From an uncultured Alsobacter sp. (GTDB lineage Bacteria > Pseudomonadota > Alphaproteobacteria > Rhizobiales > Beijerinckiaceae), in contig CAZJCW010000001.1 in assembly GCA_964544365.1 (NCBI GenBank), positions 14,127-78,126 on the forward strand: a stretch of DNA of 64,000 nt, in the 5' to 3' direction. A program made the translations under genes and the position numbers. The notes under the pieces are model-generated. The model did not search any database. It was given only the letters and a program-made list of their open reading frames with translations, and had not been told where the DNA came from. Shown in pieces: positions 1-19,842 of this stretch (its first letter is position 1; each line of letters starts with the position of its first letter).

Positions 1-235
1 CGAGCCCCAGCGCCGAAGCCAGCGGCCGCGCGGTGTCCATGGTCCGGGCGAAAGGGCTCGAGTAGATGCCGCTGATCGGCTCCAGCCCGAGCCGCGTCGC
101 GACCGCAGCGGCTTCGCGATGTCCGGCTTCGTCCAGCGGCTCATCACTCCAGCCGAGATAGCGCTGGGCATTGCCAGCGGTTCGACCGTGCCGCACAAGA
201 AAAAATCGGGCTGCACGGGTGGGGCCGGCGGTCAC
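1..235 (-). CDS. histidine phosphatase (phosphoglycerate-mutase-like) family protein, 5' part only; gene runs off the left edge
   Basis: The minus-strand frame from GTG 235..233 reads VTAGPTRAARFFLVRHGRTAGNAQRYLGWSDEPLDEAGHREAAAVATRLGLEPISGIYSSPFARTMDTARPLASALGL with no stop to the window edge. It has the RHG catalytic motif of the His-phosphatase fold. The start forms a GTGA overlap with the stop (232..234) of the upstream kinase-like gene. The ORF is absent from the supplied track because it is truncated. Confidence 0.75.
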   Translation of the reverse strand, partial: MTAGPTRAARFFLVRHGRTAGNAQRYLGWSDEPLDEAGHREAAAVATRLGLEPISGIYSSPFARTMDTARPLASALGL

Positions 236-1530
236 TGGCGTGTCCCCGACACGGCTTCCGTCAGCGGCCTGGCAAGCCGGAGAGCTTCGTCCTCCAGACG
301 GATGAAGGCCGGTTCGTCGACCCTGTCCTTCTTCAGCATCAGCGCAAGGTAGTAGATGGACGCGCATGTCCGGTGCCAGGCGAGCCGAAGCGGGTCGAGT
401 GGCGCGAGATGCCTTGCGTAGCTGTCGATATAGACCCCGATCGACGCGCGCCCCTGGGGATCGTCCAGCGCGGCAGAGCCGTCCCCGGAGAATGCCGGAA
501 CATCGTAGCTGAGCGAGGCGAGAAAGATCGCGATGTCACGGTACGGGTCCCCGGCGTGACACAGATCGAAGTCGGTGATCGACCACAGGTCATCGCTCGC
601 GAGCGTCTGCGAGCACACGAGGTCGCCGTGGCAGAACGACGGTTGCGGATCGGAGGGGCGTGTACGATCGAGCAGATCGCCGAGCCCAGCGAGGCGGGCG
701 AAGCTGGCCGGGCGATAGAGTCCAAGCAGGCCGAGGTCGAAGCGGGCCTGTTCCATCCACGTCCGGTTGCCGATCCCGGAGAGACCCTCGACCGGCAATC
801 GGTGCAGATGCGCATGCAATTCGCCCAGCCTTGCAAACGCATCCGTCGACCCGGCTGTGATCGTGTCCGCGACGTCATCGCCCGGCAGGACACTCTGGAA
901 GTAGAGCGACTCGTCCTGATCGAAGGCGAGCGGACGGGAGACCGACAAGGGCAGGCCGGACTTCGCGACGGCATCCGCAACGCGACCGATGAGCGCGTGG
1001 GCCGTTGCGGCACGCGAGCGGCGCTTCAGCTTCGCGATGCAAGGGCCGTGGCGGGGATGGTCGATGGACAGCGTCAGTCGCCGCAGCGGGACATAGCGCA
1101 GGACGCGACCGCGAACCCCGTCCGACGACCAACGGTTCAGAACCGTCTCAACCGAGGTCAGATAGGGATCCGCCGGGAAGCTCAGCCAGTCGATTTGCCC
1201 CGACTTCGCAGACCAGGACAGCGTTTCCGCGGAAAAGCCAAAAGGTCGATCCGGGCGACGGGTCCGCTGGGCGCTCCAGTACGCACGGTCCAGCGTCCAG
1301 CCGCCGGGACCCGCAACGGCCTTCAACTCCGCATGGACAAGAGCGATGGTCGCGCCCGGCTCGAGTCGCGCGGCAATCGCTTCCCGCAAGTCCTGGACGA
1401 CGTCGAAAAAGGGATGGTTCGGTCCGACGAACTCGAAAGGCCGGGCTGCCATGGCGAAAGCGGTACGATCCTGACCCGGTCTGCGGGATCCAAAACAATG
1501 CAACCATAACAGGCGCATCCCTCTTGCCAA
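232..1530 (-). CDS. phosphotransferase family protein (APH/choline-kinase fold), kinase A
   Basis: 432-codon ORF with a TTG start at 1530; in-frame ATGs at 1518 and 1452 are alternative starts. It carries FCHGDLVCSQ (catalytic loop with Gln where the Brenner motif usually has Asn) and ITDFDLCHAGDPYRDIA (DFD metal-binding motif). Confidence 0.8.
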   Translation of the reverse strand: MARGMRLLWLHCFGSRRPGQDRTAFAMAARPFEFVGPNHPFFDVVQDLREAIAARLEPGATIALVHAELKAVAGPGGWTLDRAYWSAQRTRRPDRPFGFSAETLSWSAKSGQIDWLSFPADPYLTSVETVLNRWSSDGVRGRVLRYVPLRRLTLSIDHPRHGPCIAKLKRRSRAATAHALIGRVADAVAKSGLPLSVSRPLAFDQDESLYFQSVLPGDDVADTITAGSTDAFARLGELHAHLHRLPVEGLSGIGNRTWMEQARFDLGLLGLYRPASFARLAGLGDLLDRTRPSDPQPSFCHGDLVCSQTLASDDLWSITDFDLCHAGDPYRDIAIFLASLSYDVPAFSGDGSAALDDPQGRASIGVYIDSYARHLAPLDPLRLAWHRTCASIYYLALMLKKDRVDEPAFIRLEDEALRLARPLTEAVSGTRQ

Positions 1531-1598
1531 GGTCGTGCCCGGCGAGATTGGATGCGCGACGCTCGCGGCGTCACGTCTGCGGGGTTTTCGAAGAGTGC

Positions 1599-2762
1599 AT
1601 GATGCCCGCCCCCCGCGTCGCCCATGTCATCAACAGCATCGGCCTAGGCGGCGTTCCGGAGAGCGTATTTCATCTGCTCCGCACGATGCCTACGGGCGGC
1701 TGCGAGCCCTTGCTGTATGTTCTCCGCGGCCCCGATCCCGCCGACGAGCATCGCGCAGCCCGGCTTGCAAGGTTCACGCAGATCGGCTTGCCGGTGACGC
1801 TGGGTGCACCGGACGACGGGCGGCTGTCCATGATCGCACAGTTGCACGCGTGGTTGACGCGCGAAGCGCCGGATATCCTGCACAGCCACTCCTACAAGCC
1901 CAACCTTCATGCCGGGCTCGCAGCAGGCACCCTGCGGCCCAAGGGACTCAAGGTCATCGCCCACTATCACAACCAATACGACGCCCAGTGGGATCGCGAT
2001 GGCACCCTCGGCTTGAACGCGGCGCTGGCCGTGCAGTGCGATCGCGTCCTTGCATGTTCGAGGACGGTAGGAGACCACGTTCGTGAGCGCCTCGGTGTTC
2101 CGTCCGAGCGCCTGGCCATCATACCCAACGGTGTCGACGACGTGCGTTTCTCGCAGGGTCCTTCGCGGAGCGTGGCGCGGGCAACGATGGGCCTGCCGCA
2201 AGACCGCCCGATCATCGGTCTGGTGGGCCGCATCAGCGAGCAGAAGGGTCACGAGGATCTCTTGCGGGCCGCCGTCGCGATTCGGGCCGCGATCCCAGAC
2301 GTCCTGATCGTCTTCGCCGGAGCTCCCGACGCTCCGGAACGGCTTGCCTCCGTCCAAGCAATGGTCGCCTCGCTCGGCCTCGACGGCGCCGTTCAATTCG
2401 CGGGGTTCGTGGACGAGATTCCGACGTTCTACGCGGCTCTGGACGTGCTCGCGGCGCCCTCGCGATGGGAAGGGTTCGGCCTCATGCTCGTCGAGGCCAT
2501 GACGGCAGGCGTCCCCATCGTCGCGACGGCGGTGGGCGCCATCCCCGAAGTCGTGGGCGATGACGGCGCTGCGCGCCTCGTGGCGCCGGGCGCGATCGAC
2601 GCGCTTTCCGGAGCGCTCATCGACGTCCTGACAGACACGACTTTGGCGCATCGGCTTGCATCGGCAGGCCGGCGGCGTGCCGCCCTCTTCACCTGGGACC
2701 GGTCTGCCGCGCGCCTCGCGGAGATCTACGCCGCCGTGTGCGACGAAGGGGCGGCGTCTTGA
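1599..2762 (+). CDS. glycosyltransferase family 4 (GT-B fold), GT4-a
   Basis: ATG 1599 (or 1602) lies inside ORF 1005..2762. The upstream 198 codons are Arg/Pro/Ser-rich and overlap the divergent gene, so I excluded them. Motifs: GRISEQKGHEDLL and EGFGLMLVEAMTAGVPIVATAVGAIPEVV (E-x7-E). Confidence 0.88.
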   Translation: MMPAPRVAHVINSIGLGGVPESVFHLLRTMPTGGCEPLLYVLRGPDPADEHRAARLARFTQIGLPVTLGAPDDGRLSMIAQLHAWLTREAPDILHSHSYKPNLHAGLAAGTLRPKGLKVIAHYHNQYDAQWDRDGTLGLNAALAVQCDRVLACSRTVGDHVRERLGVPSERLAIIPNGVDDVRFSQGPSRSVARATMGLPQDRPIIGLVGRISEQKGHEDLLRAAVAIRAAIPDVLIVFAGAPDAPERLASVQAMVASLGLDGAVQFAGFVDEIPTFYAALDVLAAPSRWEGFGLMLVEAMTAGVPIVATAVGAIPEVVGDDGAARLVAPGAIDALSGALIDVLTDTTLAHRLASAGRRRAALFTWDRSAARLAEIYAAVCDEGAAS

Positions 2763-4048
2763 ACGTCGACTGGACCTACGACGCGGTTCCGCCACTGGGG
2801 GCGTCGGCGGAGTTTCCGCAAAGAGTCTTCCTCGGTCGGACGGCCTTCGTCGAGGCGGCCCTTGTGGAGGCAGGCCTCATTCCACAGGCGGGCGCATCGC
2901 TGGCATTGGCGAACGTCTGGTACGTTCCTGGGCGCTCTCTCAGCGCGATCTATGAAGGGCAAAGCGAATCCCGGCCACTGCTCGCGACCTTGCACTTCGC
3001 GAGATTTCCGTCCGAGGGCGCCGGGCCGGACGTGACCGGCGGGACCTGGGTTCCGGCTCTCGGCGCCAGTGTCCTGCGGTTCCCGCATGACCCGGGGCTT
3101 CCCGATCTTCCCGTTCTCATCGGGCTTGACGCTTTGCCTCCGCTCGGTGCGACGCCGGCGGCCTCCTGGAGGATGTTGAGCTACCTGCCCGGCGCACGCT
3201 GCACGATTGCCTACGCCGATTCATCGACCCGCATGATCGCGGTCGGGAAGCTGCAGAACGGAGCACCCGCGACCCACCGCCGGATGCAGCAGCTCTGGCA
3301 GTCTTCGGCCCGGGACTTTGCAATGGCCGAGCCGCTGGCGGTGGATGAAGCGCACGCCATCCGGTGGGAGCGCTTCGTACCGGGAGAAAGAGTGGACCGC
3401 ATCATGGACGACTCGCTGCGCGCTGCCGCGACCGCGTCCGCGATGTCGGCGCTGGCGTGTCTCCACGGTCTCCCGCTCGATGGTCTTCCCCTCCGCAACG
3501 GTCGCGTCGTGTTCGAGCGCGCGGCCCGCAAGGTGGCCAAGCGCGTCCGGGTCGCGCTTCCGGAACTGGACCGGTCCGCCACCCTCCTGTGCGAGGACCT
3601 GGCAAGGCGGCTGCCGTCGATGGAAGGGCGCCCGACCGTCACGCTGCACGGCGACTTCCACACGGCGAACATCCTCTTCGACGGCCGGACGCCCGGCTTC
3701 ATCGACCTCGACGAACTCGCGCTCGGGGATCCGGCCTACGATCTGGCCCTGTTTGCCAGCCGTCTCCTTCTCGTCGGCCTGGTGAATCCGGACAGGGCAG
3801 GGCAGGCTGCCGAACTGGCGCAGGCTCTTCCGGCTCTCTATGCGCAGGCCGGCGGCCAGCCCATTCGAGACGACGTGTTCGCGTGGTACGTGGCCACGCT
3901 TCTGCTCGGTCGGCAGGTGAAGACCTGCATCCGCCATTGTGCGCCGGAGTTGGGCAAACTTGGCGCGACCCTGCTGGCGTGGGCGCATGACACCCTGCGC
4001 GCGGGCCGGGTCGACGCCGCGCTGTATTCGACCGGTTCTCCCGCCTAG
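2738..4048 (+). CDS. phosphotransferase family protein (APH fold), kinase B
   Basis: GTG 2738 overlaps the GT4-a stop (2762) by 25 nt. It carries TLHGDFHTANILF (canonical HxDxxxxN) and FIDLDELALGDPAYDLALF. The N-terminal region shares an FP-x-DP-x-L segment with kinase A. Confidence 0.8.
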   Translation: MRRRGGVLNVDWTYDAVPPLGASAEFPQRVFLGRTAFVEAALVEAGLIPQAGASLALANVWYVPGRSLSAIYEGQSESRPLLATLHFARFPSEGAGPDVTGGTWVPALGASVLRFPHDPGLPDLPVLIGLDALPPLGATPAASWRMLSYLPGARCTIAYADSSTRMIAVGKLQNGAPATHRRMQQLWQSSARDFAMAEPLAVDEAHAIRWERFVPGERVDRIMDDSLRAAATASAMSALACLHGLPLDGLPLRNGRVVFERAARKVAKRVRVALPELDRSATLLCEDLARRLPSMEGRPTVTLHGDFHTANILFDGRTPGFIDLDELALGDPAYDLALFASRLLLVGLVNPDRAGQAAELAQALPALYAQAGGQPIRDDVFAWYVATLLLGRQVKTCIRHCAPELGKLGATLLAWAHDTLRAGRVDAALYSTGSPA

Positions 4049-5835
4049 CCCGCTTCCACGGCGTCGATCTGGAAGAGGTTGCAGTAGTAGCCGTTCCGGG
4101 CGACCAGTTCGGCGTGCGTGCCCTGCTCGACGATCTTTCCGTTTCGCAGGACGACGATGAGGTCCGCGTGGCGAACGGACTGGAGGTGATGCGCGATGAG
4201 CACCGTCGTCTTGCCCTCCATCGTCGTCCGCAACGCCGTACGGATCTGAGCTTCGGATTCGGCGTCGATGGCCGACGTCGGTTCGTCCATCAGCAGGATG
4301 TCGGGGTTCTTGATGAGCGCTCGCGCCAGCGACAGGCGCTGCCGCTGGCCGCCCGAGAGGCTCGCCCCGCTCTCGCCGACGATCTCGTCGTAGCCGTCGG
4401 GCAGGCGGGAGATGAAGTCATGCGCTGCGACGGCGCGTGCGGCGGCCTCGATGTCCGCGTCCGTGGCATCCGGCTTTCCGTAGGCGATGTTCTCTCGAAT
4501 GCTCGCACCGAAGAGCAGGGCATCCTGCAGCACGACGCCGATGCGCTGGCGATACGATTCCCTGTTGAGCGTTCGGATGTCGATCCCGTCGACGGTGACC
4601 TGCCCCTCCGTCGGGTCGTAAAGCCGGACGATCAGGTTCGCGAGCGTGGACTTGCCCGCTCCGGACGCTCCGACAAGGGCGATGAAGCGGCCCTGGGGAA
4701 GGGTCAGCGAGAGATCGTCGATCACCGGCTTTCCGGGCTCATACCAGAACGAGACGTTCCTGAATGCGATCTCGCCGCGCAGGGACGCGACGGGCCTGGC
4801 ATCGGGCAGGTCCACCATGTCGGGCTTCGTCTCGAGCAGTTCACGGATCCGGTCGGCGCTGGCGCTGGCCTTCGAGAACCGGGCCGAGAGGCGCGCCATG
4901 ATGCGGACCGGCTTGTACATGTCGACGATGTAGGACGAGAAGACCAGGAGGTCTCCCGGCGACATCCGCCCCCGCATGACCTGGATGCCGCCGAACAGCA
5001 TGACGGTGGCGAGGCCGATGGCGCGCGCAACCTCGACGATCCGCGCCACGGACGCCTCCATCCGCGCCATCCGGATGCTTTCCTCCTTCGACAACGAGCT
5101 CTGAGTCTCGAACCGCGAACTCTCGTACCGCTCGCGCCCGAAGGCCTGCACCAGCGAGACCGCCTTCAGGACCTCCATGAGGCGGGACGTCAGCGCGCTC
5201 TCCCGGTAGCGCTGCTGCCGCGCGGAGACCCGCATGCGCGCCAGCACCAGATAGAGCCCGCCGAACAGGACGGGGAAGGACACGATGACGATGAGCGCCA
5301 GCGTGGAATCGATGATCCACATCACGACGCACATGCCGAGGACCGTCAGCGCATGGGTGGCGAATGCCAGCACGTACTCCGAGTAGACGTCCTTCAGCGT
5401 GTTGGTATCGGCGACGATCTTGTTCATCAGTTCGCCGCTGCGGGAGCGGACATGGAACGAGAGCGAGAGCTGCTGGAGGTGGTTGAAGAGGGCGTTCCTC
5501 AGGCGGAACGTGATCTCGAACCCGATGCGCGATGTCACGTAGATCTGCGCATAGGCGAACGTCGCCGAGAGAAGCGCGAGGACGACGATCGCGCACGCGA
5601 GAAGCGACAGGGCCAGGATGCTTGAGGGCTGCACCCAGGCGAGGTACGTGGCCCAGGCGGCCGGGACTGCCTTGCCGTAGAGCACGTGGTCGAAGATGAG
5701 CTTCAGGGGCCACGGAAGCGCCAGCGCCACCAGCGTCGAGCCGGCCACGCAGAACAGCGCAAGGGCGATCGCGCTGCGCGCTTGCCAGAGGCATCCGAGG
5801 ACGATCTGGCGGAATGTCTGTGCCTGCGTCCGCAT
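4045..5835 (-). CDS. ABC exporter, fused permease/ATPase half-transporter (MsbA/type-I exporter-like)
   Basis: ATG 5835 is preceded by GGAGG. The N-terminal half is hydrophobic. Walker A is GASGAGKST, the signature is LSGGQRQRLSLARAL and Walker B is ILLMDEPTSAID. The track ORF extends to 5958, but the extra 41 codons are Arg-rich and lack an RBS. Confidence 0.9.
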   Translation of the reverse strand: MRTQAQTFRQIVLGCLWQARSAIALALFCVAGSTLVALALPWPLKLIFDHVLYGKAVPAAWATYLAWVQPSSILALSLLACAIVVLALLSATFAYAQIYVTSRIGFEITFRLRNALFNHLQQLSLSFHVRSRSGELMNKIVADTNTLKDVYSEYVLAFATHALTVLGMCVVMWIIDSTLALIVIVSFPVLFGGLYLVLARMRVSARQQRYRESALTSRLMEVLKAVSLVQAFGRERYESSRFETQSSLSKEESIRMARMEASVARIVEVARAIGLATVMLFGGIQVMRGRMSPGDLLVFSSYIVDMYKPVRIMARLSARFSKASASADRIRELLETKPDMVDLPDARPVASLRGEIAFRNVSFWYEPGKPVIDDLSLTLPQGRFIALVGASGAGKSTLANLIVRLYDPTEGQVTVDGIDIRTLNRESYRQRIGVVLQDALLFGASIRENIAYGKPDATDADIEAAARAVAAHDFISRLPDGYDEIVGESGASLSGGQRQRLSLARALIKNPDILLMDEPTSAIDAESEAQIRTALRTTMEGKTTVLIAHHLQSVRHADLIVVLRNGKIVEQGTHAELVARNGYYCNLFQIDAVEAG

Positions 5836-5996
5836 TACCGGTGCCTCCACCCGTCCTTGCCCGTGCTCGTGGCAGCCCGGACCTGACCGCGTGGCGCCCC
5901 GCGCCCGGAAGCGGCGCCGGGCGTGCATTCTTGCGTAGCCGCAAAGAGTGAATTGCAAAAACTCAAAGTTGGCTCCAGCAGGCCTTTTGGCCCAGT

Positions 5997-6062
5997 TCGT
6001 CAGCGTCCTGTCAGCTTTGCGTCAGCGTCGCGTCAGCTTGGCGTCAGCGTGGCGTCACTTTC
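5997..6062. repeat. six contiguous 11-bp tandem repeats, consensus GCGTCAGCnnn
   Basis: Read directly: tcgtcagcgtc / ctgtcagcttt / gcgtcagcgtc / gcgtcagcttg / gcgtcagcgtg / gcgtcactttc. The GTCAGC cores start at 5999, 6010, 6021, 6032 and 6043, plus GTCAC at 6054. The spacing is exactly 11 bp, about one helical turn. The array lies in the divergent intergenic region between the exporter and the GT-kinase fusion operon. Confidence 0.9.
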
Positions 6063-6064
6063 GT

Positions 6065-6084
6065 TGTGACAGTTTCGTGTCACA
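6065..6084. promoter_or_regulatory. perfect 7-bp inverted repeat TGTGACA-N6-TGTCACA (candidate operator)
   Basis: tgtgaca (6065..6071), gtttcg, tgtcaca (6078..6084). It lies 2 bp downstream of the 11-bp repeat array, and its right end is 45 bp upstream of the ATG at 6130. Confidence 0.6.
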
Positions 6085-6129
6085 GCCGGCCCGGACGATG
6101 TTTGAACGGGCGACTGAGGGGCGAATACC

Positions 6130-8052
6130 ATGAATACGGGCTCTGTAACAGAATCGATATTGATTAAATTCTGTGTAACCGGTCGATCTGGACTGGGCCA
6201 TATTCGTCGTACCTGTAACATTGCATCGGCACTGATGCGTGAGAACTGCCACATCCGGTGCGTTCTCCTGACGAATGCACCGATTGCCGGCCTCTCTGCG
6301 CAGGAACGCGATCTGTTCGAGAGCATCGACGTCGTGGCCAAGTCCCAGATGGCGCAGCGACTTGCCGCGATGGAACCCGGGCCGGTCGTCGTGGATACTG
6401 CGGTCGTTCCCCGGCTTGCACTGCTTGCCGATCCGCTGTGCCTCGTCCTGCGCGAGACCATCGAGGATCGGCTGTCCTCGTTTCGCCTGGAGGCCGGGCG
6501 GCCCTGGGATCTGGTCGTTGTGCCGTCGTCGCGCTCGCACTGGCACCCCGATCCCGGGACGATCGGCGCGCGCGAGGTTTCACACGTCAACTGGATCTAC
6601 CGCACGGCCGAGACGGATCGCGGCGGTTCGGTCCTGCCGCCCCGCTCTCGCCCCCGCGTGCTCGTCGCTACCGGCGGCGGCGGGTCGCCGCAGACGGCCG
6701 CGGCCCTTCGCGTCGCGATCGACGATGTCCTTTCGCGCCTTCCCGGTGACGGCAGCCACGAGGTGGTCCAGGTCGCCGGCCCGCGACTGGCGCCCGAAGG
6801 CTTCCTGCAGCGCGCCGATGCGCGGATCGATGTCGGCGCCCGGCTCAACGAGGCTTTCGCCGAGGCCGACGTCGTCATCTCCACCGTCGGGTACAACTCC
6901 ATTCTCGAGCTTGCCGACCACGACACGCCGGCTCTCCTGGTGCCGATCGAGCGCACCTTCGACGACCAGACGGGGCGGGCCGAGGCGTGGGGGCCCCTTC
7001 TCGGCCTGGCGCATCGGGCCGACGATGCGGCACGCAGCAGCGAGTGGATCGCCGGCGTGCTGTCCGGGAGAAGCCGGCGCGCACGGGTGGAACTGGGACC
7101 CAGCGGCGCAAGCGAGGCGGCGGCGTTGATCCTCGGGCTCGTGCGCGAGCGGGCGGGCTGGTCCTTCGACAAGGTGATGAAGGACAGCGATCGGCCGACA
7201 CCTTCATCCGCGGCACGTCGTGCGACGTTTCTCTTCATGCAAGGCGTTGCGACGCCCTGCGCCCGCGATGGTCTCGTCCCCGACGCGATCACGATGCCAC
7301 GCCTTGGGACGTCGTCGCTTCGGGATCGTCTTCGGGCCCTCGGGGGACCGTTCCTGAGCGGCCCGGCGCTTGGAAGGGCGGTCTGCGACGTCCTTCTCGT
7401 CTCGGAGGACAGGCCGAACCTGCTGGCCACGTTTCATGCCGTGGCGTCGGTCCCGGAAGACGTGGCCGATTTCGATGCCCTCGCGAAGGTGCGGTCCCGC
7501 CTGGCTCCTGGCCATGCCGCACACCGGCTCGGATCGGCCAGTGTGCGCCGGGCAGCGATCCTGGCGGACGCGATCGAACAGGCCCTTGGCGGAGTCGCCG
7601 CGGACCGGAGCCGCCGCGTCCTGCTGCATGGCGACCTGCATGCCGGCCAGATCCTGGCGGACGGAGCGGGCGCACCCGTCGTCATCGATCTCGACGATCT
7701 TGCGATGGGCGCCGCTGAAGCCGACATCGCCAATCTCGGCGCCCATCTCGTGACAAGCGTCGATCTGTACGACGGCCCTGTCGCACCCGGGTTTCTCGCC
7801 GTCGTGGACGCGCTCTCGGGTGTCGCGGTCGGCGAGCCACTCTCGCCGGCGCGCCTCGCCGCCTATGGCGCAGCCGCCCTGCTTCGCCGGGCGCTGAAGA
7901 TCGTGGAGCGGGACGGCGACGTCGACCGCTGCATCGCGATCATCGATGCCTCCGAGACCCTTCTGCGCCGGGCCCTCGCGATGCCGAGGACCGCACCTTC
8001 GCCGTACGACGCTTCCGAGCGTGCGGCATCCCCCGTCTCCATCAACCCGTGA
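6130..8052 (+). CDS. fusion protein: N-terminal GT28-like (COG4671-type) glycosyltransferase domain + C-terminal APH-fold kinase domain (kinase C)
   Basis: 640 codons; ATG 6130 has GAGGGG about 9 nt upstream. The N-terminal part (about 6130..7150) is paralogous to the next gene: GRSGLGHIRRTCNIA vs TVGLGHVRRNSTIA, VLVATGGGG vs VVVTAGGG, ADVVISTVGYNSILE vs ADLVVTMGGYNSMLE. The C-terminal part (about 7160..8049) carries LLHGDLHAGQILA and VVIDLDDLAMGAAEADIANL. Confidence 0.82.
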   Translation: MNTGSVTESILIKFCVTGRSGLGHIRRTCNIASALMRENCHIRCVLLTNAPIAGLSAQERDLFESIDVVAKSQMAQRLAAMEPGPVVVDTAVVPRLALLADPLCLVLRETIEDRLSSFRLEAGRPWDLVVVPSSRSHWHPDPGTIGAREVSHVNWIYRTAETDRGGSVLPPRSRPRVLVATGGGGSPQTAAALRVAIDDVLSRLPGDGSHEVVQVAGPRLAPEGFLQRADARIDVGARLNEAFAEADVVISTVGYNSILELADHDTPALLVPIERTFDDQTGRAEAWGPLLGLAHRADDAARSSEWIAGVLSGRSRRARVELGPSGASEAAALILGLVRERAGWSFDKVMKDSDRPTPSSAARRATFLFMQGVATPCARDGLVPDAITMPRLGTSSLRDRLRALGGPFLSGPALGRAVCDVLLVSEDRPNLLATFHAVASVPEDVADFDALAKVRSRLAPGHAAHRLGSASVRRAAILADAIEQALGGVAADRSRRVLLHGDLHAGQILADGAGAPVVIDLDDLAMGAAEADIANLGAHLVTSVDLYDGPVAPGFLAVVDALSGVAVGEPLSPARLAAYGAAALLRRALKIVERDGDVDRCIAIIDASETLLRRALAMPRTAPSPYDASERAASPVSINP

Positions 8053-9317
8053 CGAGACCCATGTCCAACCGATCCATCGTGATGTACTCGCCGGACACCG
8101 TCGGTCTCGGCCACGTCCGCCGGAATTCAACGATCGCGACCCATGTCGTCGAGATGAACCCGGACTGCAGCGTCGTGCTGCTGGTGGGTAGCGCCGCCGG
8201 TCCCGTCTTCGCGTTGCCGCCCGGCGTGGACACCATCAAGCTGCCTTCCGTCCAGAAGCTCAGCAGCGGCGACTGGTGCGCGCGCAGCCTGTCGATCTCC
8301 AACCAGGTTGCCCAGCGTGTCCGGTCCGGCCTGATCCGCGAAACCATCGCGACCCTTCGCCCCGACATTCTTCTGGTCGATCATCTGCCCTGCGGCATAT
8401 GGAGCGAACTGCTGCCCGTCTTCGAGTTCATCCGGAGCCGGCGCCTGCCGACGCGGATCGTGCTCGGCCTGCGGGACATCCTGGACGATCCGCAGCGCGT
8501 GTCTTCCCGCTGGAGCCGGGAAGGGACGTACGACGTCGTCCGGCGGTACTACGACAGCGTGTTCGTCTATGGCGATCGCGCCGTGTTCGACTCCGCGGCG
8601 GCCTATGGTCTGAGCGAGGAAATCTGCAGCGACGTTCGCTTCATGGGCTACGTCACCGGTGAGACGAATTCTTCGCCGGCAGCCAGCGGCCGGCAATCCG
8701 GCGGCCGTGACGAGAAGTTCGTCGTGGTCACCGCCGGCGGGGGTTACGACGCCTACCCGATGATGGCTGCGTCACTCGAGGCGCTGTCCGTCGTGCCAAG
8801 GTCGCAGCGCATCAGGGCTGTCGCCGTCGCGGGCCCGCTGATGCCGGACGAATACTTCGCTCGCCTCAGGGCAATGGCCGACGCTTCCGGCATCGAGCTC
8901 GTCCGGTTCACGTCGGAGCTCAAGACGATGCTGCGGCGCGCCGACCTCGTCGTGACGATGGGCGGATACAACTCGATGCTCGAGATCACCGCACTCGGCA
9001 AGGCGACGATCGTCATACCGCGCTCCGGACCGAGCATGGAGCAGACCGTTCGCTCGCAGATGTTCGAGCAGATGGGCTTCTCCCGGCACGTCCCGCTCGA
9101 GGCGGCCACGCCCGAGTTCCTGTCGCAGGCAATCGTCGCCGGACTCGCATCGCCGCCGCGCCCCTATGCGACCTTGGGCCTCGACGGTGCCCGCAACGCA
9201 GCCGCGGCACTGGTCGGAAAGCTCGCGCAGGCCTCTGGCCGGCGCTCGCAACTCCGCGCCTCGCGTTCGCGGCTGGTGCGGTCCGGCAGGGTGGAGAGCG
9301 TCCATGCTCATCCCTGA
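8049..9317 (+). CDS. GT28-like (COG4671-type) predicted glycosyltransferase
   Basis: GTG 8049 forms a GTGA overlap with the upstream stop; ATG 8061 is an alternative start. Motifs: IVMYSPDTVGLGHVRRNSTIA, VVTAGGGYDAYP, ADLVVTMGGYNSMLEITALGKATIVIPR. Confidence 0.8.
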   Translation: MTRPMSNRSIVMYSPDTVGLGHVRRNSTIATHVVEMNPDCSVVLLVGSAAGPVFALPPGVDTIKLPSVQKLSSGDWCARSLSISNQVAQRVRSGLIRETIATLRPDILLVDHLPCGIWSELLPVFEFIRSRRLPTRIVLGLRDILDDPQRVSSRWSREGTYDVVRRYYDSVFVYGDRAVFDSAAAYGLSEEICSDVRFMGYVTGETNSSPAASGRQSGGRDEKFVVVTAGGGYDAYPMMAASLEALSVVPRSQRIRAVAVAGPLMPDEYFARLRAMADASGIELVRFTSELKTMLRRADLVVTMGGYNSMLEITALGKATIVIPRSGPSMEQTVRSQMFEQMGFSRHVPLEAATPEFLSQAIVAGLASPPRPYATLGLDGARNAAAALVGKLAQASGRRSQLRASRSRLVRSGRVESVHAHP

Positions 9318-10560
9318 CAGGGCCGGAAAAGTCGGCGCAGGACTTCGGGTCGGCTATGTCCTGAAGCGGTTTCCGCGCCTGAGCCAGACCTTCGTGCTTG
9401 CGGAGATTCTCGAACTCGAGCGCCGCGGTGTCGAGGTGCGCGTGGCGTCGCTCCTGCCGCCCCTCGATGACGCGGACAAGGTCGACACCCGTGCCCTGCG
9501 CGCGAAAGTGGACGTCCTGCCAGACGGCTACGCCGTGTGGCCGAACGAAGACGGGCTTGAAGGCCTCGTTGCCGGAAAGACGGAGCGCGCGCGGGAACGG
9601 ATCGCCCATTGGTCGGCCGCACTGGCAGAGCTCTGGGGCTCCGAGGGAATCGACTGCCTGCACGCCCATTTCGGATCCGACGCGACCACCGTCGCGCTTC
9701 TGGCCGGACGCAGGATCGCGCGGCCCGTGTCGTTCACGGCGCATGCCCGCGACATCTTCAAGCACTACGCAACCGAGGACGAGGACCGGCTCGCACGCCG
9801 CTCGAAGATGGCGCTGGCCGATGCCGTCGTCACCGTGTCCGACTTCAACAAGTCCTATCTCGCCGCGATGGCCGGGCCGTCCTCGGCCGGGAAGATCGAA
9901 CGCATCTACAACGGGATCGATCTTGCCGCGATCAGACCGGGCCCCGCCGCAAAGCGGGAACAGGGCCTGATCTTGGCCGTCGGCCGCCTCATCGAGAAGA
10001 AGGGCTTCGGCGATCTCATCGCTGCTTGCGCCGTCCTCCGCTCGGGCGGTGTCGATTTCCGCTGCGAGATCGTCGGCGAGGGCCCGCTGCGCGAAAGCCT
10101 GGAGGCGCAGGTGCGTGCCTGCGGGCTCGAGGACGACGTTTCGTTCGTCGGCGCTGTTCCGCCCGCCGAAGTCTTGCGCCACATGCGGCGAGCGAGCGTC
10201 TTTGCCCTGCCCTGCGTCGTGGCCGCCGACGGCGATCGGGACGGCTTGCCGACCGTGCTTCTCGAGGCGCTGGCGAGTGGGCTTCCCGCGGTCACGACCC
10301 GGGTGGCTGGAACGCCCGAAATCATCACCGACGGGATCACCGGCCGGATCGTCGATCCAGCCGATCCCGCTCGGCTAGCCGAGGCTCTCGCGAGCCTTCT
10401 GATGCAACCGGATCTTGCCGGACGCTGCGGTCACCAGGGCCGCGCCAAGGCCGAGCGTGATTTCGACATCACCACCAATGTGGGTGCTCTTCATGACCTC
10501 TTCACCCGATACACCAGCCAGTTCGATCGCCGAGCTTCGGCAGCGCTTGCGGCAGAGTGA
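9304..10560 (+). CDS. glycosyltransferase family 4, GT4-b
   Basis: ATG 9304 lies inside ORF 9166..10560 and overlaps the upstream stop (9317) by 14 nt. Motifs: RVGYVLKRFPRLSQTFVLAEILELERRG, GRLIEKKGFGDLI, DGLPTVLLEALASGLPAVTTRVAGTPEIITDGITG (E-x7-E). Confidence 0.88.
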   Translation: MLIPDRAGKVGAGLRVGYVLKRFPRLSQTFVLAEILELERRGVEVRVASLLPPLDDADKVDTRALRAKVDVLPDGYAVWPNEDGLEGLVAGKTERARERIAHWSAALAELWGSEGIDCLHAHFGSDATTVALLAGRRIARPVSFTAHARDIFKHYATEDEDRLARRSKMALADAVVTVSDFNKSYLAAMAGPSSAGKIERIYNGIDLAAIRPGPAAKREQGLILAVGRLIEKKGFGDLIAACAVLRSGGVDFRCEIVGEGPLRESLEAQVRACGLEDDVSFVGAVPPAEVLRHMRRASVFALPCVVAADGDRDGLPTVLLEALASGLPAVTTRVAGTPEIITDGITGRIVDPADPARLAEALASLLMQPDLAGRCGHQGRAKAERDFDITTNVGALHDLFTRYTSQFDRRASAALAAE

Positions 10561-10570
10561 GGCGCAACCC

Positions 10571-12067
10571 GTGAGCACGCGACGCAAGGGTCCACTGACT
10601 GTCGTCATGGTCGTTTCGCTCGGCCTTGCCGGCGGGTGGGGTGTCTTCGCGATGTCAGGCCATCGCCTCTCGGCCAGCCCCGCCTTGGCGTCGGGCCCGG
10701 AGGGAGGCGGCATGTCCGCCTTCGAGACGGCCTCGGTGACACGTGGCATCGTTCGTCGTCGCATCCAGACGGCAGGGCCCATCAAGCCGGTCGTGACCGC
10801 GCAGGTCGGATCCCAGCTCTCAGGGCAGGTCCGCGAGATCCGGGCAGACTTCAACACGGTCGTACAGGCCGGCGACGTTCTCGCGGTGCTCGACGCGAAG
10901 ACCTTCGCCGCCCGCATCGACCAGGCCATGGCCGAACTCGACATGGCGAAGGCCGCGCTGACGAACCAGACCGCCAACCACGACAAGTCGGTCGCAAACC
11001 TCCGCGTCGCCGAGCGCAACAGCCAGCGCCTCAAGGATCTCAACTCGCGAGGCGTCGGCTCGGAGGCGCAACTCGACTCCGCGCAGCGGGATGTCGAGGT
11101 CGCGCGCGCCGAGATGATCGTGTCGAAGGCGCAGGTCGACAGCGCCCGCGCCAATGTCGTGCAGCGCCAGGCCGCCTTGTCGCAGATGACGATCGATCTG
11201 GAACGGACAGAGATCCGCGCGCCGATCGCAGGCATCGTGATTTCACGTTCCGTCGAGATCGGGCAGACCGTGGCGGCCAGCCTGTCGGCTCCCGAACTCT
11301 TCCGCATCGCCCAGGATCTGCGTCAGGTTCGCATCGATGCGCAGGTGAACGAAGCCGACATCGGCGGCGTCTCCGTCGGCAACCCGGCGACGTTTCGCGT
11401 CGATGCCCACCCCGGGCGCACCTTCTCCGGAACAGTGTCCCAGGTGAGGCTTGCCGCGACGGAAGAAAACAACGTCGTCACCTATACCGTCGTGATCGAA
11501 GCCGAGAACCCGGACCTCAAGTTGTATCCCGGCATGACGGCGACGGTGGAGATCGAGACCGCCCGGCGTCAGGACGTGCTCCGGCTCCCGGCCGAGGCAC
11601 TGCGCTTCCGCCCGAGGCAGGTGACACCGGCCATGACGGCCGGCGACAAGTCGGAGCGTCGCGAAGTGCAGCTCGAGCGTCTCGCGAAGAAGCTCTCCCT
11701 GACGCCGCAGCAGCTGGCTGCCGCGAAGGAGCGTCTCACTGCGATGGAACAGGCCAAGACCAAGTCGGCGGGCGCCGAAGGGGAAGCCAAGGCCAAGCGC
11801 GTCGGTTCGACCGATAGGCTGGCGATGGTGGTCGAGCCGCTGCTGAACGAACAGCAGCGCACCCTCTTGTCCGCGTGGCGCGAAGAACGCGAGGACACGA
11901 ACGCGACCGCGGTTTGGGTCGTCGGAAACGACGGTGTTCCGATCCGGCGCCCGATCAGGATCGGCCTGGTCGACGGCACCCACGCCGAACTGATCGGCAC
12001 GCCGATCACCGAGGACGAGAAGGTGATCGTCAGGGCGAGGACGCGGACCCCGAAGGATCGGCCATGA
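10571..12067 (+). CDS. HlyD-family membrane-fusion (periplasmic adaptor) protein, MacA/DevB-like, with an internal insertion
   Basis: GTG 10571 lies 10 nt after the GT4-b stop; the start is uncertain because the ORF opens at 10415. There is an N-terminal TM anchor (LTVVMVVSLGLAGGWGVFAM), a lipoyl-like segment (GQVREIRADFNTVVQAGDVLAVLD), a long coiled coil and TEIRAPIAGIV. A Lys/Glu/Gln-rich insertion of about 93 codons lies at 11621..11899. Confidence 0.85.
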   Translation: MSTRRKGPLTVVMVVSLGLAGGWGVFAMSGHRLSASPALASGPEGGGMSAFETASVTRGIVRRRIQTAGPIKPVVTAQVGSQLSGQVREIRADFNTVVQAGDVLAVLDAKTFAARIDQAMAELDMAKAALTNQTANHDKSVANLRVAERNSQRLKDLNSRGVGSEAQLDSAQRDVEVARAEMIVSKAQVDSARANVVQRQAALSQMTIDLERTEIRAPIAGIVISRSVEIGQTVAASLSAPELFRIAQDLRQVRIDAQVNEADIGGVSVGNPATFRVDAHPGRTFSGTVSQVRLAATEENNVVTYTVVIEAENPDLKLYPGMTATVEIETARRQDVLRLPAEALRFRPRQVTPAMTAGDKSERREVQLERLAKKLSLTPQQLAAAKERLTAMEQAKTKSAGAEGEAKAKRVGSTDRLAMVVEPLLNEQQRTLLSAWREEREDTNATAVWVVGNDGVPIRRPIRIGLVDGTHAELIGTPITEDEKVIVRARTRTPKDRP

Positions 12068-12804
12068 ACGCCCATGTCCGAACGCAGACGGCACTCGTCG
12101 AAGCGCGCGACCTGGTGAAGTCCTACACCGTAGGCACTCACACGATCGAGGCCCTGAGAGGCGTCACCCTGTCCATCGGCGCCGGTGATTTCGTCGCGAT
12201 CATGGGGACATCGGGGTCGGGCAAGTCGACCCTGATGAATCTCGTCGGGACGCTGGACCGCCCCTCCGGTGGCGTCCTGATGATCGGGGGGCACGAGGTG
12301 TCCCGTCTTGACGACGACGGCCTCGCGGGCGTTCGAAACCGCCTCATCGGGTTCGTGTTCCAGCACTTCAATCTGTTGCCCCGCACGTCGGCCCTCGAGC
12401 AGGTCATGCTGCCGCTGCGCTATCGCCGCGTCCCGGCCAGGCAGGCGGAGGCAGAAGCGCGCGCGAGACTGGCTCAGGTCGGTCTGGGAGACCGCACGGA
12501 CCACCGACCGCAGCAATTGTCGGGTGGCCAGCAGCAGCGCGTCGCCATCGCCCGCGCACTGGTCGGCGACCCACTCCTCCTGCTGGCCGACGAGCCCACG
12601 GGCGCGCTCGATTCGCGGACATCCGCCGAGATCATGAAACTTCTCGTCGATCTCAACGACCAGGGCGTCACGATCGTCCTCGTGACCCACGATCCCACGG
12701 TGGCGACCTACGCGAAGCGCTGCATCACCATGCGTGACGGAGCCATCGTCGAGGATCGCGCCGTATCGCGCCGAGAACTGGAGACGAGTCATGCGGTTGG
12801 CTGA
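12064..12804 (+). CDS. ABC transporter ATP-binding protein (MacB/LolD/DevA-type)
   Basis: ATGA overlap with the adaptor stop. Walker A is GTSGSGKSTL, the signature is LSGGQQQRVAIARAL and Walker B is [12 protein letters not shown]. Confidence 0.93.
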   Translation: MNAHVRTQTALVEARDLVKSYTVGTHTIEALRGVTLSIGAGDFVAIMGTSGSGKSTLMNLVGTLDRPSGGVLMIGGHEVSRLDDDGLAGVRNRLIGFVFQHFNLLPRTSALEQVMLPLRYRRVPARQAEAEARARLAQVGLGDRTDHRPQQLSGGQQQRVAIARALVGDPLLLLADEPTGALDSRTSAEIMKLLVDLNDQGVTIVLVTHDPTVATYAKRCITMRDGAIVEDRAVSRRELETSHAVG

Positions 12805-14023
12805 CCTCTTTCTCGTGGCCTTGGCAGCCCTGCGGGCAAATCTTCTGCGCAGTCTCCTCACCACGCTCGGCATCATCATCGGCGTTGCCTCGGTCATCGT
12901 GATGGTGGCCGTGGGCGAGGGCGCACGCAGCGAGGTCGAGCGGCAGATCGCCAGCCTCGGCACCAACATCCTTCAGGTTCAGCCGGGATCGAGCCGGGTG
13001 CGTGGCCGTTGGGCGGGAAGCGGGACGCGGCTGCCTTTCTCCGAGCAGGATCTCCAGGCGATCCGCTCAGGCGTCCCCGCGGTCGCCGCCATCTCCGGTG
13101 TCCTGACCAACGTGGCGCCGATCGTGAACGGGCCGACGAACTGGCTGAGCAGCATCGAAGGCGTGAGCGACGACTACCTGAATGTCAGGACGTGGGATCT
13201 CGCCGGCGGTCGCTTCTTCGGCGCTGACGAGGAGGCGGCCGGCGCGCGGATCGCCGTCATCGGCCAGACCGTCGCGACCCAGCTCTTCGGCGACACGGAT
13301 CCGATCGGAGCCGAAGTCCGCATCATGAATGTGCCGTTCGAGATCGTCGGCGTGCTCGAGCGGAAGGGCCAGTCGACGTCCGGAAAGGACCTCGACGATG
13401 TGGTTCTCGTCCCCGCTTCGACGGCCCGCTCGAAGATGTCGAAGCCCAACAAGAACGTCCCGCGTCAGGTGGGCAACCTGGTCATCAAGGTCACCGAAGG
13501 CGAGGCGCTCGACGAAGCGAAGGCCGAGATCGAGGATGTCCTGCGCAAGCGCCGGAGAAGTCAGGCCAACGGCGAGGACGACTTCTTCGTTCGGGACCTC
13601 GCGGACTACAACCGGACGCGTACGGCAACGCAGCAGACTTTGGGTCTTCTGCTCGGTGCAACGGCCCTGATCTCGCTTCTCGTCGGCGGCATCGGCATCA
13701 TGAACATCATGCTTGTGTCCGTGTCGGAGAGGACGAAGGAGATCGGACTGCGGATGGCCGTCGGCGCGCGGCGGGGAGACATCCTGCGGCAATTCCTCAC
13801 GGAATCCGTGGTGTTATGCCTCATGGGGGGATTTGCCGGCGTGATTGCCGGGGTGGGTGCCACCATCCTGTCGGCCACGGTCGCCGGCTGGCCCGTGCTG
13901 ATCAGCCCGGCCATCGTCGCAACGGCCCTCGCAGCCGCCGCTGCAACAGGATTGCTGTTCGGCTTCCTGCCCGCCCGGCGTGCAGCAGGCATGAGTCCCA
14001 TCGACGCCCTGCGGGCCGACTGA
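12791..14023 (+). CDS. ABC transporter permease, FtsX/MacB type with periplasmic domain
   Basis: ATG 12791 overlaps the ATPase stop by 14 nt. N-terminal TM (RSLLTTLGIIIGVASVIVMVAVG), then a periplasmic domain of about 220 aa, then the FtsX module GGIGIMNIMLVSVSERTKEIGLRMAVGARRGDILRQFL. Confidence 0.9.
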   Translation: MRLADLFLVALAALRANLLRSLLTTLGIIIGVASVIVMVAVGEGARSEVERQIASLGTNILQVQPGSSRVRGRWAGSGTRLPFSEQDLQAIRSGVPAVAAISGVLTNVAPIVNGPTNWLSSIEGVSDDYLNVRTWDLAGGRFFGADEEAAGARIAVIGQTVATQLFGDTDPIGAEVRIMNVPFEIVGVLERKGQSTSGKDLDDVVLVPASTARSKMSKPNKNVPRQVGNLVIKVTEGEALDEAKAEIEDVLRKRRRSQANGEDDFFVRDLADYNRTRTATQQTLGLLLGATALISLLVGGIGIMNIMLVSVSERTKEIGLRMAVGARRGDILRQFLTESVVLCLMGGFAGVIAGVGATILSATVAGWPVLISPAIVATALAAAAATGLLFGFLPARRAAGMSPIDALRAD

Positions 14024-15778: not shown

Positions 15779-16452
15779 TCTGGCCAAGACGTTCGATGCG
15801 ACGGGTACTGCGATGCGGTCTCGCATGGCCGACTCCAAAGGTGATCACCGACCAGGGCCGGCGTCGTGTTGCCCACTGTGAGGGCCAACCCAGAGCGTTT
15901 CTTCAGAGGTGGAGGTCCGCTCAGGCAGATCTCCTAAGTTTCTTTACGCAGATTGCGTCTGTTAAATAGACGTTACCAACTTCGCTCGAATTGAGAACGG
16001 GAGTTCGTCCTGCACCCGCTGGTGACTTGGTCGTACATCGCGCCGGGGGACCAAACGTAACGCCATCGCGACATCCGGCGGTGGACTGTGTCCGACCAAT
16101 GTATGGGACCAAGGGCTCGCGTTTCTCTGTCTCGGAGCACGCCGGAAACGGTCAAGGACGCTGTAGAGCCAAGCGGTCTCGGCCGCCGTGCACGCATCGC
16201 TTCCGCTCGCGGAAGAGGATCGTCACACGCGGGAGTCGTGGATCGTCGACGGCGCCGGGGCGCGCAACACGGCTCGGACTGCCCGACCCTCGCAAGGTTC
16301 ACGCCGTCATCGCGTGACGCATCACGACAATCTCTGGATGAGAAAAAGCTCAACAGATGCGAGGGCGTGGGCCACGGCAGCGCGCACGCGGAAAGTCATG
16401 CCGAGAGGCCGAAACCTCGATAGTCGTGACGGTATCGGGTAAGCCGGTTCGA

Positions 16453-16532: not shown

Positions 16533-17408
16533 TCATTCCGACGGTTTCAATTTGTCCTGCGTCTTGGTGTCGAAGTCCGAAGCATCGTGGCGTTCGTGGA
16601 GCTGCATCGCGAGGTCGCCGTTCACCCGGTTGACCATGCGCCCCCTCTTCGCCGCCGGTCGCTCCCCGATCGCATCAGCCCATCGCTGGACGTGCTTGTA
16701 GTCCTGCACCTGGAGAAACTCCGCGGCATCATACAGCCAGCCTTTCACCAGCCCGCCATACCAGGGCCAGATCGCGATATCGGCGATCGTATAGTCCGGC
16801 CCCGCAATGAACTCCGTTTCCGCAAGACGTCGGTCGAGCACATCCAGTTGCCGCTTCGCCTCCATCGAGAAGCGGTCGATTGCATATGCGATCTTGGTCG
16901 GCGCGTAGGCGTAGAAGTGGCCGAAGCCACCGCCCAGATACGGCGCGCTGCCCATCTGCCAGAAGAGCCAGGACAGGCATTCGGCTCGCGGACCCGCCTC
17001 GGTCGGCAGGAAGGCTCCGAATTTCTCGGCCAGGTAAACCAGAATGGAGCCGGACTCGAACACCCGTATCGGCGTCGGCCCGCTCCGATCGAGCAAGGCA
17101 GGAATCTTGGAGTTCGGGTTCACGGCCACGAACCCGCTTCCGAACTGCTGCCCTTCGCCGATCCGGATGAGCCAGGCGTCGTACTCGGCGCCGGCATGGC
17201 CAAGCGCGAGCAATTCCTCCAGCATCACCGTAACCTTGACGCCGTTGGGCGTGCCGAGCGAGTAGAGTTGAAGAGGGTGGCGTCCGACCGGCAGGTCCTT
17301 CTCGTGCGTCGGGCCGGCCACCGGCCTGTTGATGTTCGCGAAGCGACCGCCGTTGTCCTTGTTCCAGGTCCAAATCTTGGGAGGCTTGTATCCAGGGGCA
17401 TCGGTCAT
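16533..17408 (-). CDS. yghU: Nu-class glutathione S-transferase YghU
   Basis: ATG 17408. MTDAPGYKPPKIWTWNKDNGGRFANINRPVAGPTHEKDLPVGRHPLQLYSLGTPNGVKVTVMLEELL...QLHERHDASDFDTKT matches E. coli YghU, as I recall its sequence, along the whole length. Confidence 0.92.
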   Translation of the reverse strand: MTDAPGYKPPKIWTWNKDNGGRFANINRPVAGPTHEKDLPVGRHPLQLYSLGTPNGVKVTVMLEELLALGHAGAEYDAWLIRIGEGQQFGSGFVAVNPNSKIPALLDRSGPTPIRVFESGSILVYLAEKFGAFLPTEAGPRAECLSWLFWQMGSAPYLGGGFGHFYAYAPTKIAYAIDRFSMEAKRQLDVLDRRLAETEFIAGPDYTIADIAIWPWYGGLVKGWLYDAAEFLQVQDYKHVQRWADAIGERPAAKRGRMVNRVNGDLAMQLHERHDASDFDTKTQDKLKPSE

Positions 17409-17496
17409 TGCGGTCGTTCCAGCACTTGGTGAGATGAAAGTCCCAGTCACAATCTCAGATTGCAGGCGAATATTTTCCAACCAGGCCGCAGCCGTG

Positions 17497-19807: not shown

Positions 19808-19842
19808 GCGATCCTCCGCCTGCCGGAGCTATCGATCCTCCC

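Follow-up and report, generated by a model that had tools for sequence, protein, structure and literature searches.

The gap between two divergently transcribed gene sets in a 64-kb stretch of an uncultured Alsobacter sp. genome (contig CAZJCW010000001.1, positions 14,127 to 78,126; hereafter the window) carries six tandem 11-bp repeats followed by a palindrome, upstream of an operon that begins with a fused glycosyltransferase-kinase gene (GT28-APH). The question raised by this locus is what such an array does and which protein, if any, reads it. An earlier inspection of the letters alone (the sequence-only reading) had offered cooperative binding by a response regulator or an oligomeric regulator, an iteron-like site, or a DNA-bending element. 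We suggest, with a probability of about 0.65 to 0.7, that the array serves as a complex operator, bound by a winged-helix response regulator from the OmpR/PhoB family that is encoded elsewhere. It is very probably a functional cis-regulatory element of a known architectural kind; this architecture has already been described, and the array leaves the current view of how such operators work unchanged.

Structure and significance of the array

Six head-to-tail units containing GTCA follow each other without interruption (Table 1). Their description as six copies of GCGTCAGCnnn holds for the number of units and for the exact 11-bp spacing, but the literal GCGTCAGC is present in just 3 of the 6. 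GTCAGC is found in 5 of them, and unit 6 has GTCACT. The cores, thought to lie all on one face of the helix, do so only roughly, since an 11-bp period on DNA with 10.5 bp per turn drifts by about 17 degrees per unit. Tandem Repeats Finder reported the array both with a period of 11 (5.5 copies, 79% matches) and with a period of 22 (2.7 copies, 89% matches), so the better-conserved unit is the 22-bp pair. In the window, odd units read GTCAGCGTC/G and even units GTCAGCTT or GTCACTTT; in the orthologous locus L001 the odd units are likewise GTCAGCGTC and the even ones GTCAGCTT.

The six-unit array is far above chance. The pattern GTCAGC-N5-GTCAGC has four matches in the window, all of them within the array, with 0.72 expected. 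The array holds a run of six copies of one 4-mer in 11-bp phase, and elsewhere in the window such runs do not exceed two. When 300 first-order Markov versions of the 64-kb window were searched for any 4-mer in 11-bp phase, the longest run was 3 in 280 of them and never exceeded 4. The looser pattern YGTCAB-N5-YGTCAB is also confined to this intergenic region, no further sites being found in the window, the second divergent gap of the gene cluster (~1530-1600) included.

Direct repeats of a heptamer plus four bases at 11 bp, paired into 22-bp units and bound by head-to-tail dimers, are the binding mode of the OmpR/PhoB family (PMC8041468, PMC4832192). The array has what is expected of a response-regulator operator, namely at least two consecutive cores of 6-7 bp with spacers of 4-5 bp and a period of 10-11 bp, and at orthologous promoters the cores are conserved while the spacers are free. 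Cooperative binding by a response regulator is thus the option that fits the heptamer-plus-four repeats, their 22-bp super-period and the conservation of cores rather than spacers.

Conservation at orthologous loci

Conservation was followed in the fetched loci of relatives of the fusion protein, seven of which were arranged in a register table anchored on a conserved box downstream of the repeats. The array is in register in seven orthologous loci, with fusion proteins about 45-71% identical. There are six units in L001 and L002 (fusion identity 71% and 70%), three good units and a degenerate one in L003 and L004 (50%), and five positions, one of them degenerate, in L005 (47%). L139 and L140 (47%) have the proximal pair TCGTCAG-N4-CTGTCAT together with a distal pair or triple, and L141 (49%) has six phased degenerate cores (GTAAG, GTAAG, GTTAG, GACAG, GTCAG, GCAAG). 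In all array-bearing loci listed, the position and register relative to the box and to the ATG are the same. Over the seven loci, GTCAG is matched on average at 3.55 of 5 positions in register, against no more than 1.7 in every other register. In a multiple alignment, conservation is highest in the array and the box, and the rest of the spacer aligns poorly. Among the relatives that the sequence-only reading had proposed to search, the array is conserved in register in L001-L005 and L139-L141. YGTCAB-N5-YGTCAB is limited to this intergenic region in L001, L003, L005, L139 and L140 too, and L142 has one additional match within the operon, at 11270.

Across these loci the cores are kept while spacer bases and unit number differ, and the proximal pair and the box are always present. 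This pattern argues for protein-binding half-sites and not for neutral slippage. A neutral tandem duplication by slippage of a 22-bp unit, or DNA that is merely bent and has no sequence-specific partner, is a very improbable explanation. It would agree with the 89% similarity of the three 22-bp copies in the window and with the many perfect microsatellites of GTCAG-containing 11-mers, such as GGGGTCAGACC in Vicinamibacterales, found among the matches listed in a genome scan. However, register and cores are maintained at 45-50% protein identity, where the spacers have diverged and the proximal pair and box persist, and a purely structural role as a DNA-bending element leaves the conservation of GTCA amid drifting spacers unexplained. 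Duplication probably created the extension units 1-4, whose cores have since been maintained.

Judged from the aligned loci, units 5-6 (6041-6062) are the conserved operator core and units 1-4 a lineage-specific extension. The proximal boxes of the relatives read TCGTCAG-CCGC-CTGTCAT in L139, TCGTCAG-GTGC-CTGTCAT in L140 and TCGTCAG-TTAT-CCGTCAT in L005. The loci can be ordered into a series that begins with a single box and ends with three contiguous ones, with inverted half-sites and one reversed lineage among its members, as duplication of a 22-bp dimer site would produce.

It is also very unlikely that the repeats serve a direct-repeat binder other than a response regulator (a ribbon-helix-helix protein of the ParR/omega type, or a SARP-like protein) or act as iterons or a centromere. 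In its favor, ParR binds arrays of ~11-bp direct repeats at parC, SARPs recognize heptamers at 11-bp spacing next to the -10 element, and a 22-bp period is typical of iterons. Against it, no rep, par, ribbon-helix-helix or SARP (BTAD) genes were detected among the Pfam-scanned open reading frames (ORFs) across the 64 kb. The fusion protein had no homolog in a plasmid collection by tblastn, and a megablast of 4000-9400 against the same collection returned one trivial 48-bp match, in an unrelated ABC-transporter gene. The array always lies at the same promoter of a syntenic chromosomal cluster. The suggestion of an iteron-like site consequently fails on the lack of replication and partition genes, the chromosomal syntenic context and the constant presence of the same operon downstream.

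A role at the RNA level, as a 5' leader, an attenuator or a protein-binding repeat RNA, is the least probable explanation that we considered. Two terminator-like hairpins were flagged (6039-6057 and 6054-6070), but they are by-products of the repeats. No Rfam match for the element was obtained at E<=1, and the consensus fold of seven orthologs by RNAalifold reaches -1.76 kcal/mol with 4 pairs and no compensatory change. The iteron, RNA-element and CRP-type readings were rejected.

Other motifs were observed in the same intergenic regions. A GAATTGCAAA box lies at 5950-5959, ~40 bp upstream of the array, and ATTGCAAA is identical in the window, L001/L002 and L003; the box may be part of the divergent exporter promoter or the site of a second regulator. 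In the array-less loci L009, L011, L012, L014 and L015, another motif, (C)TTGGGGCAAAWGRCCCA, is found upstream of the fusion gene; its L011 version is a perfect palindrome with 8-bp arms (CTTGGGGC-AAAA-GCCCCAAG), and a faint counterpart in the window, AGGCCTTTTGGCCCAG, stands at 5980-5995, directly before unit 1. L012 (740-2760 and 5641-8256) has a PmrA/QseB-like regulator and a QseC/PmrB-like kinase upstream of the fusion gene, and an NtrC-family sigma-54 activator with a kinase downstream of it. Control of the cluster has evidently been rewired from one lineage to another.

The palindrome and the conserved downstream box

The array is followed by TGTGACA-gtttcg-TGTCACA (6065-6084), which had been reported as a 20-bp perfect palindrome. 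It is perfect, but it is not a conserved unit, only the left arm being kept in relatives. It is the only such match in the window even with 3 mismatches allowed, and taken alone it is within chance (mean of 1.25 matches expected). The right arm reads TGTCACA, TGTCGCT, TGACACG, TGACGAT, CGACAAC, CGACAAC and TGTCAAC across the seven loci, so the palindrome itself is not conserved. The conserved portion consists of the left arm and the next bases, (G/A)TGACAGTTT(N)G, 13-14 bp past the last direct GTCA; TGACAG is retained in 6 of the 7 tabulated loci, always 13-14 bp after that GTCA.

This box may be understood in two ways. On the minus strand, AAACTGTCA(C/T) may be an inverted canonical Pho-type half-site, AAACTGTCAY, with an A-rich spacer; the same strand reads CGTCAC-GAAA-CTGTCAC in L005 and, by eye, CTGTCAT-TAAA-CTGTAAT in L142. 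On the plus strand, TGnCAGTTT (TG at 6067-6068, CAGTTT at 6070-6075) may be an extended -10-like element. It begins 11 bp after the 7-bp core of unit 6, and the spacing is the same in all seven loci of the register table. Such a distance past the last core is roughly the -10 position in PhoB-type promoters. These promoters have a strict spacing requirement to the -10 element (PMC10294691). A sigma-54 interpretation of the box was rejected, GG-N10-GC being absent when the sequence was compared by eye with the consensus spacing.

A weak eighth half-site follows (Table 1), whose core G[AT]C[AG] all seven loci retain. Its GTGTCACA stretch is the right arm of the window-specific palindrome at 6065-6084, and the perfect palindrome is best seen as a by-product of two neighboring, oppositely oriented half-sites. 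If CAGTTT is the -10 element, 6077-6087 is the probable transcription-start region.

Could the palindrome, or the conserved inverted pair GTCA-N9-TGAC made by unit 6 and the box, be the functional unit, bound by a head-to-head dimer (GntR, TetR or Crp type), with the repeats secondary? We consider this unlikely. The 7-N6-7 palindrome is perfect in the window, L139 has the perfect inverted repeat CTGTCAT-N7-ATGACAG, and the window encodes three GntR/FCD genes and one Crp-family gene, the nearest to the array being a GntR/FCD gene at 19049-19828. These genes, however, are 13-53 kb from the array, have genes of sugar-acid catabolism as neighbors and show no synteny with the cluster. The right arm varies as described, one such palindrome is expected by chance, and TGTGA-N10-TCACA is off the CRP spacing. 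Six phased direct repeats in register would also be left without explanation. A CRP/FNR-type operator was rejected on the spacing (TGTGA-N10-TCACA here vs. TGTGA-N6-TCACA, or TTGAT-N4-ATCAA) and on the unconserved right arm.

Proposed mechanism

Under the response-regulator reading, each 11-bp unit (7-bp GTCA core plus 4-bp spacer) would hold one DNA-binding domain, and monomers would bind head-to-tail as dimers on the three contiguous 22-bp boxes of 5997-6062. The promoter-proximal box (units 5-6) would be the core, and cooperative filling of units 1-4 could give a steep, high-amplitude response. The array adjoins TGnCAGTTT, the one promoter-like element in the gap that is conserved. No -35 element was found by a consensus promoter scan, and a promoter that lacks it would therefore depend on bound regulator. 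The phosphorylated regulator, once bound, would replace the -35 contact and activate the plus-strand GT-kinase/export operon, with a predicted transcription start near 6082. The divergent exporter gene is possibly co-regulated. An additional protomer could bind the inverted box AAACTGTCAY, or a second regulator could do so, with a tuning or repressing effect on the promoter.

Several points weigh against this reading. CAGTTT, though it follows TG and has the key A and T, agrees with TATAAT at only these 2 of 6 positions, no promoter was detected in the gap by the consensus scan, and the -10 assignment is not independent evidence, given that the same bases can be read as an inverted half-site. 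The array is missing from the more distant orthologs L006 and L008-L015. In L142 the repeats are oriented toward the exporter gene, and the module may for that reason serve both divergent transcripts. Most distal units have GTCAG and GC-rich spacers, whereas a canonical Pho box has GTCAT/GTCAC and an A/T-rich spacer. Among the matches listed in the genome scan, none of the 20 annotated ORFs near four-unit GTCAG arrays is a classical Pho regulon gene, and a kinase-rich operon is not an obvious one to induce under phosphate starvation.

Candidate regulators of the array

The sequence-only reading had found no regulator gene in the locus, which holds for the cluster at 1-14023 by Pfam; the entire 64 kb (~49 ORFs) gave no response regulator by the same search. 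A tblastn against the fetched loci found no OmpR-family regulator beside the array-bearing orthologs. That no such gene was found in the cluster, in the window or beside the arrays of the other loci is in keeping with a global regulator whose gene is unlinked. In Thalassospira, a similar six-unit GTCAG array does lie between an OmpR-family regulator gene and the gene that it probably controls, an independent association in favor of a response regulator of this family.

PhoB, and with it phosphate limitation as the signal, is the leading candidate, to which we would give somewhat less than an even chance. Its case comes from the proximal and inverted half-sites, which appear as canonical CTGTCAT/C. 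The canonical 18-bp form of the box, with two CTGTCAT/C and 4 mostly A/T bases between them, is found in the proximal or inverted boxes of L139, L140, L005 and L142; the distal units of the window have YGTCAG and GC-rich spacers. Published Mesorhizobium loti boxes read CTGTCACCGGCCTGTCAT, and predicted Burkholderia Pho boxes read ACGTCATCGAATCGTCAT, also with CGTCA (PMC7814305 supplement). PhoB of Pseudomonas aeruginosa has two (T)GTCAT boxes with a 5-nt spacer (PMC4513871). The window contains no pst or pho genes and no other box.

The same architecture could be read by a regulator other than PhoB, either a GTCAG-preferring member of the OmpR family (TctD-like or uncharacterized) or two regulators sharing a composite array. 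This possibility overlaps with the family-level reading, from which it differs only in the regulator and the signal, and although we hold it to be tentative it is nearly as likely as PhoB. It would account for the strong preference for G after GTCA in the distal units. GTCAG arrays elsewhere adjoin a TctD-like regulator and tctC, MFS symporters or a VWA/DegP pair, and none of them is by pst or pho genes, among the matches listed. There is also a precedent for PhoB and TctD dimers at adjacent sites with a distance of 22 nt (PMC4513871). On the other hand, the half-sites that are conserved best have the canonical CTGTCAT/C, in some cases beside A-rich spacers, and a pathway-specific regulator would be expected near the cluster, where none was found, nor in the ortholog flanks. 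More doubtful is the specific proposal that an unnamed GTCAG-specific OmpR-family regulator, or PhoB together with a second regulator at the inverted box integrating phosphate and a second signal, controls a rare, uncharacterized pathway for the synthesis and export of a phosphorylated glycoconjugate.

Similar arrays beyond the orthologous loci

When 185,579 genomes were scanned for four GTCAG units in phase, at least 120 matches were obtained. The orthologous loci were not among the matches listed, so the scan gives no measure of the distribution of the operator. Some three quarters of the matches listed are perfect 11-mer microsatellites or coding repeats. From the others listed we picked 27 loci with imperfect arrays and sought their flanking ORFs, 20 of which were annotated; the genes beside the arrays encode DegP-like proteases, VWA proteins, an MFS metabolite symporter, TctC and others.

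In Thalassospira lucentensis (L101, 4310-4375), six phased GTCAG units take up the interval that separates a tctC-like gene from the gene of a TctD-like OmpR-family regulator. TctD is the best NCBIfam match of the regulator, whose gene is divergent from tctC, and the array is likely an autoregulated TctD operator, as predicted from this arrangement. Phased arrays of 4-5 GTCAG units stand 60-90 bp upstream of the start codon in a Comamonadaceae metagenome-assembled genome (MAG; L119, 2395-2450) and in Rhizobacter (L065, 555-600), and the adjacent genes encode orthologous MFS metabolite/H+ symporters of ~550 aa. This hints at a conserved GTCAG-binding regulator in Burkholderiales. The hexamer 10 bp past the last core, read by eye, is TATAGC in L101, CAAAAT in L119 and GAAGAT in L065, all three having A as the second base and T or C as the sixth.

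In Opitutaceae/Verrucomicrobia (L041, L092, L132, also L076 and L081), a four-unit array (GTCGTCAGGG-, GTCAGGG-, TTTGTCAGGG-, AATTGTCA) is conserved across several species. In L132 its neighbors are a VWA-domain gene on one side and a DegP/HtrA-like protease gene on the other; the VWA gene is also present in L041 and L092, and the protease gene in L076. Near-perfect microsatellites of the 11-mer GGGGTCAGACC or CACGGTCAGAC, with up to 11 copies, are found in Vicinamibacterales, other Acidobacteriota and a Gemmatimonadaceae MAG (L080); the loci are L019, L027, L034, L037, L043, L051, L053, L054, L071, L078, L080, L091, L107, L116 and L125. These arrays look like a dispersed repeat family.

Genomic setting

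The divergent region had been measured as 294 bp, which is right if the exporter ATG is at 5835. This start has GGAGG 8 nt upstream, and the resulting protein of 596 aa equals the gene call in L002. The exporter scores 447 bits against NCBIfam MsbA_rel, under the cut-off. In L001-L003, L005 and L142 the exporter and fusion genes are likewise divergent, and in L004 and L139-L141 minus-strand genes truncated by the contig end occupy the position of the exporter gene. The exporter gene may be a second target of the operator.

Gene order in the presumed regulated operon (Table 1) is identical in L001-L005 and L139-L142. Upstream in the cluster, Pfam detects one more GT4 and two APH-type kinases. 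No NCBIfam family cut-off was reached by the cluster proteins except that of a generic RND adaptor. The fusion protein is rare, with 23 related protein clusters among 5.8 billion sequences, and its closest labeled relative comes from a Burkholderiales MAG. The cluster as a whole (1-14023), also present in L001-L006 and L139-L142, is rare, strongly syntenic and uncharacterized; it includes two or three further APH-type kinases, to which the versions in relatives add a histidine phosphatase and a heparinase II/III-like protein. Its product may be a phosphorylated glycoconjugate.

Directly downstream of the operon, the segment 14030-18500 has a lower GC content (0.59-0.63) and is not syntenic with relatives. 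Its long ORFs (e.g. 14078-15838, minus strand, 586 aa) have no Pfam match except for a GST-like ORF at 16533-17651, and the segment may be an insertion. The region 19000-64000 contains repeated modules with MR_MLE enolase-superfamily dehydratases, GntR/FCD regulators, peptide- or sugar-type ABC importers and an IlvD/Edd-type dehydratase. This last protein is closest to proteins of Devosia and Chelatococcus, at 79% identity.

Table 1. Positions of the array, the associated half-sites and the neighboring genes in the window.
Feature	Position	Strand	Description
Array	5997-6062	+	six head-to-tail contiguous 11-bp half-sites, core (C/T)GTCA(G/C)
Unit 1	5997	+	TCGTCAGCGTC, 11 bp, GTCA at 5999
Unit 2	6008	+	CTGTCAGCTTT, 11 bp, GTCA at 6010
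Unit 3	6019	+	GCGTCAGCGTC, 11 bp, GTCA at 6021
Unit 4	6030	+	GCGTCAGCTTG, 11 bp, GTCA at 6032
Unit 5	6041	+	GCGTCAGCGTG, 11 bp, GTCA at 6043
Unit 6	6052	+	GCGTCACTTTC, 11 bp, GTCA at 6054
Three 22-bp dimer boxes	5997-6062		units 1+2, 3+4, 5+6
Conserved box	6066-6076	-	GTGACAGTTTC, reverse complement GAAACTGTCAC; most conserved intergenic element
Eighth half-site, weak	6077-6087	varies by lineage	GTGTCACAGCC, 11 bp after the box
Intergenic gap	5836-6129		294 bp; MsbA-related exporter on one side, GT28-APH operon on the other
MsbA-related ABC exporter gene	4045-5835	-	596 aa; Pfam ABC_membrane and ABC_tran
Presumed regulated operon	6130-14023	+	Pfam, NCBIfam
GT28-APH kinase fusion	6130-8052	+	
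GT28 glycosyltransferase	8049-9317	+	
GT4 glycosyltransferase	to 10560	+	
MacA-like adaptor	to 12067	+	
MacB-like ATPase	to 12804	+	MacB split into ATPase and permease
Permease	to 14023	+	second part of the split MacB-like pair

Comparison with known systems

The array gives a regulatory handle on a rare, uncharacterized cluster that combines the GT28-kinase fusion, further glycosyltransferases, APH-type kinases and MsbA-like and MacAB-like exporters. Should PhoB be the regulator, the cluster would count among the envelope and glycan remodeling functions induced when phosphate is limiting, and it would be clear under which condition to look for its product.

The PhoB Pho boxes of Escherichia coli, Pseudomonas and rhizobia are the same in their direct repeats with a 7-bp (T)GTCA core and a 4-bp spacer, their 11-bp period and 22-bp dimer unit and, on the reading proposed here, a promoter without a -35 element, a fixed short distance to the putative -10 region and an unlinked regulator gene. 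The proximal half-sites CTGTCAT/C and the orthologs' AAACTGTCAY match their consensus (PMC4513871, PMC7814305, PMC10294691). What differs here is the presence of distal GTCAG units with GC-rich spacers, and of three contiguous boxes followed by an inverted half-site.

Plasmid iterons and parC centromeres also have tandem direct repeats with a period of 11 or 22 bp, but this array has no rep or partition genes and is chromosomal, syntenic and promoter-proximal to the same operon. In the quadripartite boxes of P. aeruginosa, a PhoB dimer and a TctD dimer occupy adjacent 22-nt sites and act in opposition, and the PhoB/TctD targets include sugar and lipid genes such as ugd (PMC4513871). The TctD-like regulator gene by the six-unit GTCAG array in Thalassospira recalls that system. 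There are, however, four half-sites in those boxes and six to eight here, where occupancy by two proteins is not indicated.

As many as six 11-nt repeats stand in a row in the class III operators of PhoP from Streptomyces coelicolor, with cooperative filling from the core to the weaker repeats, and one PhoP operator (phoD) is on both strands (PMC2275107). Six phased repeats, held by the sequence-only reading to be unusual for a simple operator, are therefore less so than stated. The class III arrangement is mirrored here by the division into conserved units 5-6 and variable units 1-4 and by the inverted box, although the core is GTTCAY there and GTCAG here, in another phylum and with another regulator orthologue. 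Large arrays are already described elsewhere in bacteria (PMC2275107, PMC4513871). The loci compared here would be a natural example of response-regulator operators growing by duplication of 22-bp dimer sites.

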